From the NCBI GenBank assembly GCA_964579165.1, contig CAZOFF010000034.1:1-5523 (forward strand): 5,523 nucleotides of DNA, read 5' to 3'. The position numbers and the translations under genes are program-made. Under the pieces are notes generated by a model that worked only from the letters and a program-made list of their open reading frames with translations, was not told where the DNA came from and searched no databases. Below, in pieces: positions 1,788 to 4,940 of this stretch (its first letter is position 1; every line of letters starts with the position of its first letter). Source of the DNA: Candidatus Woesearchaeota archaeon. Lineage in GTDB: Archaea > Nanobdellota > Nanobdellia > Pacearchaeales > GW2011-AR1.

Positions 1788-1963
1788 TGAGCCTACCAAG
1801 ATTTGAACTTGGGACCCCTGGCTCTCTTAGACGTAAGAACACCTAACGGTTTTCTTACCAACTTACCCTTGAATTTGCTTCAAGAGTGATCTAAAAGATC
1901 AACAATCCTATTGGATTGACGTCATATAAGACCAGTGCTCTAACCTGGCTGAGCTATAGGCTC
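1788..1963 (-). tRNA. tRNA-Ile (anticodon UAU) interrupted by a 101-nt intron at the canonical 37/38 position; exons 1963..1925 and 1823..1788; mature length 75 nt; CCA not encoded
   Basis: On the minus strand, exon 1 is GAGCCTA-TA-GCTC-AGCCAGGTTA-GAGC-A-CTGGT-CTTATA. Exon 2 is A-GCCAG-GGGTC-CCAAG-TTCAAAT-CTTGG-TAGGCTC-A. Once the intron is removed the arms pair, with one terminal U-G wobble closing the anticodon stem. The spliced anticodon loop is C-T-TAT-A-A, so the anticodon is TAT. The discriminator is A. Confidence 0.88.
1824..1924 (-). other. Archaeal-type tRNA intron (101 nt) bounded by a helix-bulge-helix-bulge-helix (BHB) motif
   Basis: The pre-tRNA reads CTGGT-CTTA-[TAT]-GACGT...ACGTC-TAAG-[AGA]-GCCAG. 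This gives a 5-bp anticodon stem, a central 4-bp helix CTTA/TAAG flanked by two 3-nt bulges on opposite strands, and an outer 5-bp helix GACGT/ACGTC. Cutting after the second nucleotide of each bulge gives exactly the 7-nt anticodon loop. The intron interior contains further hairpins, described in the findings. Confidence 0.85.
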
Positions 1964-2192
1964 GCTGTTTGTGTTTTGTGCCTTATAGCGAATGTTAATT
2001 CTTCTTGGAGGAAGGGTTAACATAAGGGAAACCTTTGGTGTCCCCTGTGAGCTATAGGCTCGTTGTTTGTCATTTTTACTTCGATTACCTATAGCGATTA
2101 TTCTCCTTGATGGAAGTGCTCATTGACTTTCTCCTTGTAGGAGGGGTTACTGTAAGGGGAACTTCTAGTGCCCCTCATGAGCTATAGGCTCG
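1950..2192. repeat. Direct-repeat array upstream of tRNA-Ile: units 1950-2047 (98 bp), 2048-2177 (130 bp) and a truncated third unit from 2178, each headed by a copy of the tRNA-Ile 5' end
   Basis: TGAGCTATAGGCTCG is the reverse complement of tRNA-Ile nt 1-14 plus one flanking nt. It occurs at 1950-1964 (the real gene), 2048-2062 and 2178-2192. The DNA between copies is itself homologous: YTGTTTGT..., then CCT(T)ATAGCGA, then TTCTYCTTG, then a GC-rich core (2007-2047 versus 2138-2177). Unit 2 carries an extra internal partial duplication, with TTCTCCTTG at both 2101 and 2129. Confidence 0.85.
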
Positions 2193-3670: not shown

Positions 3671-4372
3671 TTATCCTATTTTATTAATTTCTGCAATTTC
3701 TTCATGAGTTATGGAGCATCCTTTAAATTTCACGGCATATAACAATGCATCTAAAACTTCTGGGCTTTTTCCTACCCTAACTAATCCTTTTTTGTAGGCA
3801 ACATACATTAGTTCACTGGATCTTATAAATCTAAAACCTTTAAAGAAATCATAATTTTCTTTTTTTGCTGTTATATTTGCATGCAGTTTTTTTCGTAATA
3901 ACTCTTCTAAATTTTTTGGCATCTCTCCCAATACTCTTGTTGTTCTTTCATCAATACAAATAATGTTGTTTATTCCTTTTTCAGTTAGTATTCTTGATAA
4001 AGCTAAACATGAGATTTCTCCGCTTTGAAGGATTTGTATTGCTTTACTCTTTTCAAAAAAAGTATTATTTGCGACATCAATAATCTTTTTTATTTCTTTA
4101 TCTAATTCTTTATTATTGACTCCTATATCTTTTGGAAGTTGTAATACTTTTTCTTCATACAGATTCCTAAGTTTCAAAGCTTCCAACGCAAATCTTTTTA
4201 TAGTTAATGGTCTATCTAAAACTTCTCTTTTTACATCTTCAGTAATAATAAAATACCCATTAAATATTTCTTTTAATGCTTTTAATTCAGGAAACAATCC
4301 ATTCATTGCTAAACTAATTAATGATCCAGAGTCAAATATCAAAACTTTATTAAGCATATTTTTTTTAGACAT
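3671..4372 (-). CDS. PIN-like nuclease-domain protein, DUF3368/VapC-like (233 aa from the ATG at 4372; the ORF track extends to 4423)
   Basis: VLIFDSGSLISLAMNGLFPELKALKEIFNGYFIITEDVKREV, LQSGEISCLALS and NIICIDERTTRVLG place conserved acidic residues where PIN/DUF3368 domains have them: D after strand 1, a GE motif, and D-D/E-x-x-x-R. The start at 4372 (MSKKNM...) is preferred because the 4423 start would overlap the upstream gene by 44 nt. The 4372 start lies 7 nt after that gene's TAA. Confidence 0.72.
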   Translation of the reverse strand: MSKKNMLNKVLIFDSGSLISLAMNGLFPELKALKEIFNGYFIITEDVKREVLDRPLTIKRFALEALKLRNLYEEKVLQLPKDIGVNNKELDKEIKKIIDVANNTFFEKSKAIQILQSGEISCLALSRILTEKGINNIICIDERTTRVLGEMPKNLEELLRKKLHANITAKKENYDFFKGFRFIRSSELMYVAYKKGLVRVGKSPEVLDALLYAVKFKGCSITHEEIAEINKIG

Positions 4373-4379
4373 TTTAGGA

Positions 4380-4940
4380 TTATTTGAAGAAGTCCATAGC
4401 AAGTTTAATTCTCGTTTTAACATCTTGAGTTTTTGTTAAAGAAACATCTGTTACTCCTTTTGCTCCCGCATAATTGGCAACATCCCACATAGTTATTCCT
4501 AAAATTTCTGCTGTTTTTCCTAATGATATTCCATGTTCATAAATTTTAGATGCTTTGTTTATCTTTGCTTTTTCAAAAACATCCCTAACATAGTTTTTTA
4601 ATTCTGGGGAAAGTGTGTTAATAGATTTAATGATGCCTTCCAAATTTCTAGAAAATTCTTTAGTATTATTTGCATTTAAACTGGCCAAAGCTTTTTCTAA
4701 AAATAAACTGGCTTTTTTACAGAATTCATCGCAACCTTTTACTTTTCCTCCATTTTGCCTTTCAATTATTTTGCCTAAAGAATATAATATTACTGCTAAC
4801 ATTATGCTATCTGTGTCTTTGTATATGGAAGCAGAATGTATTGTTTCATTACTTAAAGATCTTAGTTTTATTACATCTCTTTTATGTAATGCATTTCTTG
4901 TTTCTCTTAAAATTTCCAGAACGTGCTCTTTTTCATGCAT
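4380..4940 (-). CDS. Helical protein (186 aa) with a C-terminal UPF0175-like HTH domain (antitoxin-like partner of the PIN protein)
   Basis: The C-terminal ASKIYEHGISLGKTAEILGITMWDVANYAGAKGV matches the UPF0175 pattern (hydrophobic-x-L/I-Y-x-x-G-x-I-S-L-G-K-A-A-E-L-x-G-x-x-x-x-E/D-F/V ... G-I/V), recalled from memory. The ~125-aa N-terminal region is predicted helical and I could not assign it. Confidence 0.7.
   Translation of the reverse strand: MHEKEHVLEILRETRNALHKRDVIKLRSLSNETIHSASIYKDTDSIMLAVILYSLGKIIERQNGGKVKGCDEFCKKASLFLEKALASLNANNTKEFSRNLEGIIKSINTLSPELKNYVRDVFEKAKINKASKIYEHGISLGKTAEILGITMWDVANYAGAKGVTDVSLTKTQDVKTRIKLAMDFFK

Follow-up and report, generated by a model that had tools for sequence, protein, structure and literature searches.

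Why should the beginning of a tRNA gene occur three times in direct orientation, if only one of these copies continues into a tRNA? The question is raised by a tRNA-Ile locus within 5,523 nt from a Candidatus Woesearchaeota archaeon (contig CAZOFF010000034.1, GenBank assembly GCA_964579165.1); this whole stretch is called the window in the following. A 15-mer from the 5' end of tRNA-Ile(UAU) is present here in three copies, which bracket two short non-coding inserts, each with a GC-rich hairpin element of about 38 nt. The origin of intron-bearing, permuted and split archaeal tRNA genes is a long-standing question, with very few intermediate loci available. The explanation that we favour, at a probability of about one half, is that an intron-like mobile hairpin cassette was inserted serially at the tRNA-Ile 5' end, that the target was duplicated and that the tRNA is expressed via a long structured leader. 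Attachment (att) sites of an integrated element, pieces of a split tRNA and neutral slippage are less well supported than serial insertion.

The tRNA-Ile gene, the repeats of its 5' end and the two inserts

The tRNA-Ile(UAU) gene is located on the minus strand at 1788–1963 and consists of exon 1 (1925–1963), an intron of 101 nt (1824–1924) and exon 2 (1788–1823). The Rfam tRNA model matched the same interval on the minus strand in cmscan, over model positions 1–71 with 51.5 bits and an insertion of about 102 nt after the anticodon UAU. A script written for this analysis, in which bulge-helix-bulge (BHB) motifs are scored out of 12, found a perfect 12/12 motif at the borders of this intron (...CUUAUA/U GACG ... 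CGUC UAAG AG/A GCCA), and its removal yields the anticodon loop CUUAUAA. The anticodon UAU is rare in tRNA-Ile but is known in Nanoarchaeum and Korarchaeum. ARAGORN in default mode called tRNA-Glu as the only tRNA gene and missed tRNA-Ile, which was called once introns were allowed. This matters for annotation, as default tRNA finding overlooks such a gene and fragments of its 5' end could pass for att sites.

The 15-mer TGAGCTATAGGCTCG is the complement of nt -1 to +14 of this minus-strand gene. It occurs exactly three times, at plus-strand positions 1950–1964, 2048–2062 and 2178–2192, with spacings of 98 and 130 bp; no match is expected in 200 shuffles. The threefold repeat pointed out in the initial annotation is hence confirmed, and so is the statement that a complete tRNA follows the first copy alone. 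Copy 1 (1950–1964, minus) holds the genuine tRNA nt -1 to +14 (CGAGCCUAUAGCUCA) and is the sole copy belonging to the tRNA-Ile gene. Copies 2 (2048–2062) and 3 (2178–2192), both on the minus strand as well, switch after A14 into the GC-rich motif at 2009–2047 and 2139–2177, respectively, and beyond copy 3, the most distal one, the sequence is unique. The spacer of 492 bp between a 66-aa open reading frame (ORF) and the ZIP transporter gene shows 0 differences in 8 independent assemblies, therefore the repeat structure is not an assembly artefact. The variation in copy number that the initial annotation suggested looking for was thus absent from these assemblies; they were chosen by an identical or at least 90% identical ZIP protein and represent essentially one population, which makes them a weak test of drift. 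The contigs with the repeat locus come from aquifer metagenomes and also encode Spt4, Rpb7, S24e and S27e, which identifies the host as an archaeon. More distant ZIP homologues (P0002, P0003 and P0006; 64–66% identity) stand in unrelated contexts with no tRNA-Ile adjoining.

Read on the tRNA strand, the locus consists of copy 3, hairpin B, a tail, an inverted copy of tRNA nt 4–11, copy 2, hairpin A, another tail, another inverted copy and finally the tRNA. Insert A (1965–2047, minus, 83 bp) comprises hairpin element A in reverse orientation (2009–2047, plus-strand sequence AGGAAGGGTTAACATAAGGGAAACCTTTGGTGTCCCCTG, core hairpin at 2027–2043), a CCUUCCU tail and an inverted copy at 1980–1989 (plus-strand GCCTTATAGC), which is complementary to tRNA nt 3–11. 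Insert B (2063–2177, minus, 115 bp) comprises hairpin element B (2139–2177, plus-strand sequence AGGAGGGGTTACTGTAAGGGGAACTTCTAGTGCCCCTCA), the tail CCCCUCCU, an aborted partial repeat (2101–2114 and 2129–2142) and an inverted copy of nt 4–11 at 2088–2095 (plus-strand CCTATAGC). At 83 and 115 bp neither insert has any coding capacity, just as had been judged at the outset. TATA-like boxes of the type TCGCTATA(A)GG or TGTATAG had also been reported upstream of each copy. The boxes do exist, but two of them are the inverted copies of tRNA nt 3/4–11; only TGTATAG before copy 3 is not such a copy. Furthermore, the inverted-copy box follows the sequence of its own tRNA. In the tRNA-Ile(GAU) gene of a related locus, L036, which has G instead of A at position 7, the box reads GCTACAGG compared to GCTATAGG in the window; the corresponding variants are GCUAUAGG and GCUACAGG for A7 and G7, GAGCUACG in tRNA-Arg and AGCUACACA in tRNA-Met.

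How the two units relate to each other is central for the choice between insertion and plain tandem duplication. Their non-motif parts are homologous (z = 2.6), and the flank beyond copy 3 has no homology to either unit (z = 0.08 and -1.2). An element in locus L010 matches hairpin B at 92% identity and one in L012 (L012a) at 90%, compared with 74% between hairpins B and A, and hairpin A is 85% identical to the subfamily found in L022 and L036. In hairpin B the pair next to the loop is changed on both sides with regard to the consensus (C-G to U-A). From the unique flank after copy 3 together with the difference in subfamily it follows that three repeats bracket two inserts and that this is not a tandem array of 2.4 copies. 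The two subfamilies would fit two separate arrivals, which could account for identical 15-mers beside differing inserts. The 13 nt adjoining the 15-mers are 77% and 69% identical; if the units had diverged in situ at that rate, identity of 15 out of 15 positions would be expected with p = 0.02 and 0.004, respectively.

The hairpin element and its positions

The GC-rich core of the inserts was regarded as foreign sequence in the initial annotation. This was not borne out: it is a conserved chromosomal hairpin element of the host lineage. A pattern scan of species-representative genomes recovered the element of about 38 nt in 4 contigs of metagenome-assembled genomes (MAGs) of Nanoarchaeota/Woesearchaeota, a scan of metagenomes found it in 33 contigs, and the same type of scan gave no match in viral contigs. 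The consensus is (TTAA)AGGA[A/G]GG, followed by 9–12 variable nt, GG[A/G]AACCTTTGGTG[C/T]CC and a 3' arm. The inner hairpin contains one conserved mismatch; its R:Y pair is A-U in 13 cases and G-C in 7, and is broken in 0, though the search pattern admitted mismatched combinations. The outer stem differs in sequence over at least 7 subfamilies and keeps its complementarity, hence showing covariation. Altogether 46 matches, in both orientations, were counted in 200 kb of non-redundant loci. Rfam scans at an E-value of up to 1 for the window and up to 5 for L047, L048, L033 and L036 reported tRNAs alone, with no ribozyme, C/D-box RNA or hairpin or leader family. Searching the literature by motif sequence and by keyword, we found no description of the hairpin element or of such loci.

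Some resemblances to known elements were considered and rejected. The leaders in L047, L048 and L012 contain GUGAUGA and CUGA boxes, as in a C/D-box RNA or a hammerhead core, but these are neither ordered nor spaced as such RNAs require, and none of the models matched. ORB (replication origin) boxes, CRISPR repeats, integron attC sites and diversity-generating retroelements were dismissed on paper, neither their context nor their defining features being present. With AACCCCUCCU after its hairpin, the reverse element is reminiscent of the 16S rRNA 3' end (helix 45, UGUAGGGGAACCU, then GGAUCACCUCCU), as seen at L012 3621–3660 (minus), and the forward box AGGAGG resembles a Shine-Dalgarno sequence. 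The likeness to the 16S rRNA 3' end (helix 45 plus CCUCCU) was judged too weak and may be coincidence. The hairpin core is also present in two contigs of high GC content, at L025 10807–10843 and L028 8757–8793, where tRNA-Ala genes lie beside it and a bacterial-type terminator hairpin is close by; its range may thus extend beyond the AT-rich DPANN genomes.

Forward elements have the base of the hairpin at a distance of 3–7 nt from the mature 5' ends of tRNAs in six cases (two tRNA-Glu and one each of Thr, Ala, Val and Leu). The distance is 14 nt to the ATG in three different protein genes, one EF-2-like, one RFC-like and one other, which have the linker GCGTGTCTTAC(C/A) in common, and about 85 nt to the start of one large-subunit (LSU) rRNA. 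In reverse orientation the element is found 5–13 nt past gene 3' ends, and canonical tRNA introns begin with it in the tRNA-Gly of L021 (confirmed by cmscan) and the tRNA-Ser of L029. The geometric rule is that the hairpin side faces the end of the RNA or gene, with the AGGAAGG box pointing away. A larger composite, consisting of the hairpin, a CUUCC tail and UUCAAGAGUGAU, is part of the leaders of tRNA-Arg (L047), tRNA-Met (L048) and the small-subunit (SSU) rRNA (L012), and it occurs in the opposite orientation inside the tRNA-Ile intron of the window.

This last instance points to insertion. At 1832–1885 (minus) the tRNA-Ile intron contains 54 nt made up of a hairpin element that points forward with respect to the tRNA (GUAAGAAAACC-GUUA-GGUGUUCUUAC) and a CUCUUGAAGC box. 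In the alignment these 54 nt are absent from the closely similar tRNA-Ile(UAU) of L033, the exons of which are near-identical. From this presence or absence, a single case, we conclude that the element behaves as an insertion. Judged from where its copies lie, starting tRNA introns, abutting tRNA 5' ends and inserted in the tRNA-Ile intron, the element behaves as an intron-like, insertion-prone module.

The element could also be read as a portable promoter or leader module, with AGGAAGG as the B recognition element (BRE), the AT-rich spacer as the TATA box and +1 at the start of the tRNA. Elements that abut tRNAs are positioned accordingly. On the other side, the elements of the repeat region and the rest of the window do not have the TTTAA found before promoter-type copies, and covariation in the stem would not be expected of a promoter. 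Forward elements with the AGGAAGG box and an AT-rich spacer at the BRE/TATA positions (-37 to -24) of the abutting tRNA were seen in L019, L030, L012 (3425–3535), L020, L026, L008, L032 and L045.

Further copies and arrangements of the element deserve mention here. In the window a copy of the V1 subfamily (776–812, minus) abuts the 5' end of tRNA-Glu(UUC) (703–775) and is inverted relative to the motif of the repeat region. Upstream of tRNA-Glu there is furthermore a tandem array of 47-nt units (791–912, minus, 2.6 copies) made of decayed hairpin elements. The spacer of this array is ATAGTGACTTTAGTGA, and the same dimer with nearly the same spacer lies at L044 9835–9935 (minus) against the 3' end of tRNA-Leu; the array composite may itself have moved. 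In L012 (1–5072) the rRNA genes apparently are separate transcription units. Between SSU and LSU lies tRNA-Ala on the other strand, a pair of divergent hairpin elements faces tRNA-Ala and the LSU, and a further composite element is located about 150 nt before the SSU. At L020 4244–4358 and L026 3844–3958 a 5S rRNA gene is divergent from a tRNA preceded by the hairpin, and both loci show an additional upstream block TCARCCTTGAG.

Copies of tRNA starts at related loci, their promoters and leaders

If the arrangement in the window were an accident of one locus, it should not recur. We therefore searched for the first 26–30 nt of each of the 35 tRNA genes called in the fetched loci within the 300–400 nt upstream. 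An exact direct copy of at least 12 nt of the gene's own start was present upstream of 8 of the 35, all of these copies beginning at nt -1/+1, whereas the corresponding search downstream, run as a control, gave 0 of 35 (Fisher p = 0.005; by chance about 0.04 cases would be expected). Besides the tRNA-Ile of the window (15 nt) these are tRNA-Ile(UAU) in L033 (18 nt exact, or 25 nt with one mismatch, with no hairpin element in between), tRNA-Ile(GAU) in L036 (14 nt), tRNA-Arg in L047 (16 nt), tRNA-Met in L048 (12–13 nt), tRNA-Leu in L022 (12 nt) and the tRNA-Ser genes of L025 (19 nt) and L024 (16 nt with one mismatch). Additional to these eight, tRNA-Thr in L022 has a copy of 6 nt within four perfect units of 64 nt. 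The full architecture of fragment, hairpin element, inverted copy matched to its own tRNA over 8–11 nt, and tRNA is found in L036, L047 and L048. The arrangement at the tRNA-Ser of L024 is related, but its small hairpin is a different one and its inverted copy is weak, and the upstream copies in L033, L022 (Leu and Thr) and L025 come without an inverted copy. A plain tRNA-Ile(GAU) gene with neither upstream copy nor cassette exists in L032. Copies of tRNA starts are thus located upstream of about one fifth of the tRNA genes sampled from related DPANN archaea, an arrangement of which we found no prior description. With the same layout anchored at tRNA nt +1 in these genes, neutral slippage, which the initial annotation had offered as the refuting case, is unlikely to be the whole story.

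The units in L022 (9031–9290) are a case of their own. The four 64-nt units, 100% identical to each other, consist of the reverse complement of tRNA-Thr nt 1–6, 19 nt of upstream sequence and a hairpin element; they look like a very recent tandem amplification, and their junctions form the palindrome CCTCA/TGAGG. Arrays of 60-nt units occur in L027 and L042.

The promoters give an indication of which copy marks the original start of the gene. At the plain tRNA genes of these loci a TTTAAA(A) box ends at -24 to -26; it was seen as a strongly conserved box RAAA-CTTTAAAA in L020, L021, L032, L036, L042, L044 and L046. The leaderless tRNA genes of Nanoarchaeum equitans show the same geometry, with the TTTAAA box about 26 nt before nt +1 (PMC3491384). 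By analogy, the DPANN relatives studied here may also make leaderless tRNAs. In L033, L036, L047 and L048 it is the distal copy that stands at the canonical distance from a TTTAAA box, like nt +1 of the plain tRNA genes, and in L033, L047 and L048 there is no such box before the proximal tRNA. This suggests that the gene originally started at the distal copy, and that what is new is the DNA from there to nt N+1. In the window itself the only canonical TTTAAA of the intergenic region (box A, 2239–2244) is palindromic and shared with the ZIP gene, lying 21 nt before the ZIP ATG and at -53 to -48 from copy 3. Copy 2 has the TATA-like sequence CTATAGGT at the right distance (-33 to -26).

A transcript that starts upstream of a distal copy would carry a leader, and in the predicted folds of the leaders in the window, L036, L047 and L048 the upstream fragment forms a stem with the inverted copy (z = -3.2 to -6.5; in insert A of the window copy 2 is the partner of the inverted copy, z = -4.3). 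Extending the folded sequence by the first 16 nt of the tRNA shifts the predicted pairing of the inverted copy to the real 5' strand in L047 and L036. Splicing would be another way to connect a distal start with the tRNA body. A BHB joining position 14 of the distal and proximal copies has an AGCU/AGCU central helix of 4/4 and weak flanks, giving a total of 9–10/12, compared to 12/12 in the genuine intron. Neither scans for leader removal by a BHB at the proximal +1 nor unconstrained scans of the leaders gave anything above 10–11/12, and the splice products were nonsensical. In L024 the distal copy carries a G6 that breaks the 6:67 pair, and the proximal copy keeps C6:G67. Here the proximal copy must therefore be the functional one, and a leader of 75 nt has to be removed. 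Taken from these sequence features, leader removal is favoured over splicing.

Explanations for the locus and comparison with known systems

According to the explanation that we favour, the 5' end of tRNA-Ile (nt -1 to +14, perhaps together with about 13 nt upstream) would have been duplicated twice as one target. Each duplication would bracket a non-coding cassette of 83 or 115 bp, composed of the hairpin element of about 38 nt against the end of the fragment, a CCUUCCU-type tail and an inverted copy of 8–9 nt from tRNA nt 4–11. The cassettes may have arrived by two serial insertions at one site, or by one insertion and subsequent unequal recombination between the flanking copies. Transcription from upstream would read through them; each upstream 15-mer would pair with the inverted copy, closing the cassette as a domain of its own and leaving the real 5' strand free, and the leader would be cut at +1 by RNase P or an equivalent activity.

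Several observations weigh against serial insertion. Pfam and NCBIfam scans of the window ORFs and of the gene calls from 13-kb contigs detected no integrase or transposase, a search limited to the window and these contigs and not extended to a genome-wide search for a cognate transposase. The sole nearby candidate for mobilisation, at a distance of about 9 kb on L002, encodes a group-II-like reverse transcriptase and scores below the family cut-off. The duplicated length varies between loci (6, 12–16 and 18–25 nt), unlike a fixed staggered cut by one enzyme, and no standard transposition mechanism explains an insert carrying an inverted copy of its own target. The four perfect units in L022 demonstrate plain tandem amplification, which could have made the second unit here as well, with motif conversion later. 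At the tRNA-Ile locus itself there is no presence/absence polymorphism among the 8 assemblies, and no copy in the window is at the canonical distance from TTTAAA (copy 3 overshoots it by 22 nt), which leaves the promoter argument dependent on the other loci.

A neutral origin, in which replication slippage or unequal crossing-over multiplied a unit of tRNA 5' end, upstream sequence and one resident hairpin, the units diverging afterwards with neither insertion nor function, we regard as somewhat unlikely. The L022 units next to tRNA-Thr, the 60-nt arrays in L027 and L042 and the 47-nt array at the tRNA-Glu of the window demonstrate that tandem duplication does occur, and the homology between the non-motif parts of units 1 and 2 and the aborted repeat within unit 2 point the same way. 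It would leave unexplained, however, why the sequence past the third 15-mer is not homologous to the units, why hairpins A and B are closer to elements of other genomes than to each other and why the 15-mers stayed perfect next to 13 nt of only 69–77% identity. Random end points would furthermore not be expected to yield eight upstream copies that all start at nt -1/+1 with none downstream, and the copy number does not vary in the 8 assemblies. A regulatory function, which is compatible with an origin by insertion, appears unlikely, too. The leader would act as a switch, in which pairing of the upstream 15-mer (F1) with the inverted copy (IR) frees the tRNA for folding and pairing of IR with the real 5' strand (F2) prevents folding or processing; selection for control of tRNA-Ile maturation would then keep the cassettes. 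Minimum-energy folds do pair F1 with IR in L047, L048, L036 and the window, with F2 taking over IR in L047 and L036; IR changes along with the sequence of each tRNA, and the architecture is common to tRNA-Ile(UAU) and tRNA-Ile(GAU) genes of different genomes. But the upstream copies without an inverted copy (L033, L022, L025), the beginning decay of the distal copy in L024 and the plain tRNA-Ile(GAU) gene in L032, which makes the device dispensable, speak against it, and no regulator or signal can be named.

The distal 15-mer could also be the true exon 1 of a hidden D-loop intron, in a lineage lacking RNase P as Nanoarchaeum equitans does: the transcript would start leaderless at the distal copy, and the cassette with the next 15-mer would be spliced out at 14/15. 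The plain tRNA genes with TTTAAA(A) ending at -24 to -26, the geometry of leaderless N. equitans promoters (PMC3491384), and the box before the distal copy in L033, L036, L047 and L048 are in line with this. So are the junction between fragment and reverse hairpin, which resembles that of exon 1 and intron in L021 and L029, and the self-complementary AGCU (nt 9–12), which gives a central helix of 4 bp with CA/N bulges exactly at position 14. We nevertheless consider it very doubtful, given the weak flanks of the BHB (9–10/12, of which 4 come for free, against 12/12 in the genuine intron), the acceptor pair 6:67 broken by the distal copy in L024, the divergence of the distal copy after nt 12 in L048 and after nt 11–12 in the tRNA-Leu of L022, and the 22 nt by which copy 3 of the window lies too far from its box. 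Decayed attL/attR sites of an integrated virus or plasmid, or as a variant the pieces of a trans-spliced split tRNA, both raised by the initial annotation, are the least credible of these explanations and in our view highly improbable. Direct repeats of a tRNA segment indeed bracket inserted non-tRNA DNA, as att sites would (three 15-mers, two inserts, a unique outer flank). However, the repeat is the 5' part of the tRNA (nt -1 to +14) and not the 3' part expected of att sites that keep the promoter of the gene. The inserts of 83 and 115 bp are non-coding and belong to a chromosomal element family, and that several independent loci should all have decayed to about 100 bp is implausible. No integrase or mobile element with the same 15-mer turned up in the window, the 13-kb contigs or the viral, phage and plasmid collections; the latter gave no match to the repeat region at all, though they hold few DPANN elements. 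As for a split tRNA, the complement of the GC-rich stretch behind the fragment (17 nt, 94%) precedes tRNA-Glu, but this is itself a complete gene, and with a complete tRNA-Ile adjoining copy 1 no partner piece is needed; the BHB of such a joint is weak.

A bolder version of serial insertion, for which we see a small chance, is that the locus represents an undescribed class of intron-like mobile hairpin cassettes homing to the first ~15 nt of tRNA genes. The inverted copy could then guide the choice of site, and the distal 15-mer, in a lineage that makes leaderless tRNAs and may lack RNase P like N. equitans, could be the true exon 1, with the cassette and the proximal copy forming a new D-loop intron. 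If this were true, the locus would show an intron being born and, with it, an initial stage on the way to split tRNA genes.

Among published cases, the tRNA-Thr(GGU) of Caldiarchaeum subterraneum comes closest; a fragment identical to its nt 1–27 precedes the intact gene by about 1.8 kb (Sugahara et al. 2012, PMC3293823). The insert there, 1.87 kb long, consists of a repeated, apparently mobile sequence and encodes a putative recombinase, and the authors tie the disruption of tRNA-Thr to intron gain and split tRNAs (PMC3293823). This 5' fragment is also the precedent that an att-type origin could draw on. Both loci have a 5' tRNA fragment upstream of an intact gene with mobile-type DNA in between; in the window, however, the inserts are 83–115 bp long, non-coding and based on a 38-nt hairpin, two of them stand in series, and they carry the inverted copy of the target. 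By analogy, the tRNA-Ile locus is a miniature, non-coding and serial version of the Caldiarchaeum case.

Split tRNA halves have reportedly been described from Nanoarchaeum equitans by Randau and coworkers in 2005 and 2008. This organism belongs to the same phylum (GTDB) and shares with the loci studied here the TTTAAA box about 26 nt before +1 and a 5' piece of the tRNA followed by a GC-rich stretch, and it has no RNase P. Unlike the split genes, the window holds a contiguous and complete tRNA-Ile, its fragments are 14–15 nt long and not halves, and neither a partner piece nor a convincing BHB was found. In Thermoproteales, similar short introns are said to occur in different tRNA genes and positions, which suggested mobility to Fujishima and coworkers in 2010. 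The hairpin module likewise starts the introns of tRNA-Gly (L021) and tRNA-Ser (L029) and sits in the tRNA-Ile intron; but it is also found outside of tRNA bodies, in 5' and 3' flanks, near rRNA genes and upstream of protein genes, and where it lies at the 5' end, the start of the tRNA is duplicated as well.

With bacterial repetitive extragenic palindromic (REP) elements, bacterial interspersed mosaic elements (BIMEs) and miniature inverted-repeat transposable elements (MITEs) the hairpin element has in common that it is a short, imperfect palindrome with compensatory changes, many intergenic copies in both orientations and local tandem arrays. It differs in being conserved nearly base for base across genomes and environments instead of being species-specific, and in its nucleotide-precise position against the ends of RNA genes. 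Moreover, no RAYT or Y1 transposase is linked to it, no terminal inverted repeats were seen on the element and the duplications are 6–25 nt long. Casposon and CRISPR-spacer integration by Cas1 involves a target duplication of 14–15 bp, often at tRNA genes. The succession of repeat, insert, repeat, insert and repeat with a 15-bp target from a tRNA gene looks similar, as would result from serial integration with a wide staggered cut. In contrast to Cas1 integration, however, there is neither a Cas1 or casposase nor a terminal inverted repeat, the target is the 5' and not the 3' end of the tRNA, and the duplication covers 6–25 nt.

What the window and its related loci add to the question of tRNA gene evolution is a recurrent, structured intermediate, in which the first 12–25 nt of a tRNA are duplicated around a hairpin cassette that elsewhere starts canonical introns. 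The formation of 5' fragments, the gain of introns and a dispersed repeat family are thereby linked in one lineage, which is related to an organism with split tRNAs and no RNase P.

Two observations concern protein genes. The reverse transcriptase gene about 9 kb from tRNA-Ile (RVT_1) is located at 710–1777 on the plus strand of L002, and its best match is the group II intron reverse transcriptase/maturase family with 141 bits at a cut-off of 300; it may be of the type found in diversity-generating retroelements or in defence systems. In the window, two overlapping ORFs are located at 3671–4940 on the minus strand. The product of 186 aa has a weak match to UPF0175 below the Pfam cut-off and that of 250 aa a faint flag for DUF3368 (PIN-like); the two could be a toxin-antitoxin pair.

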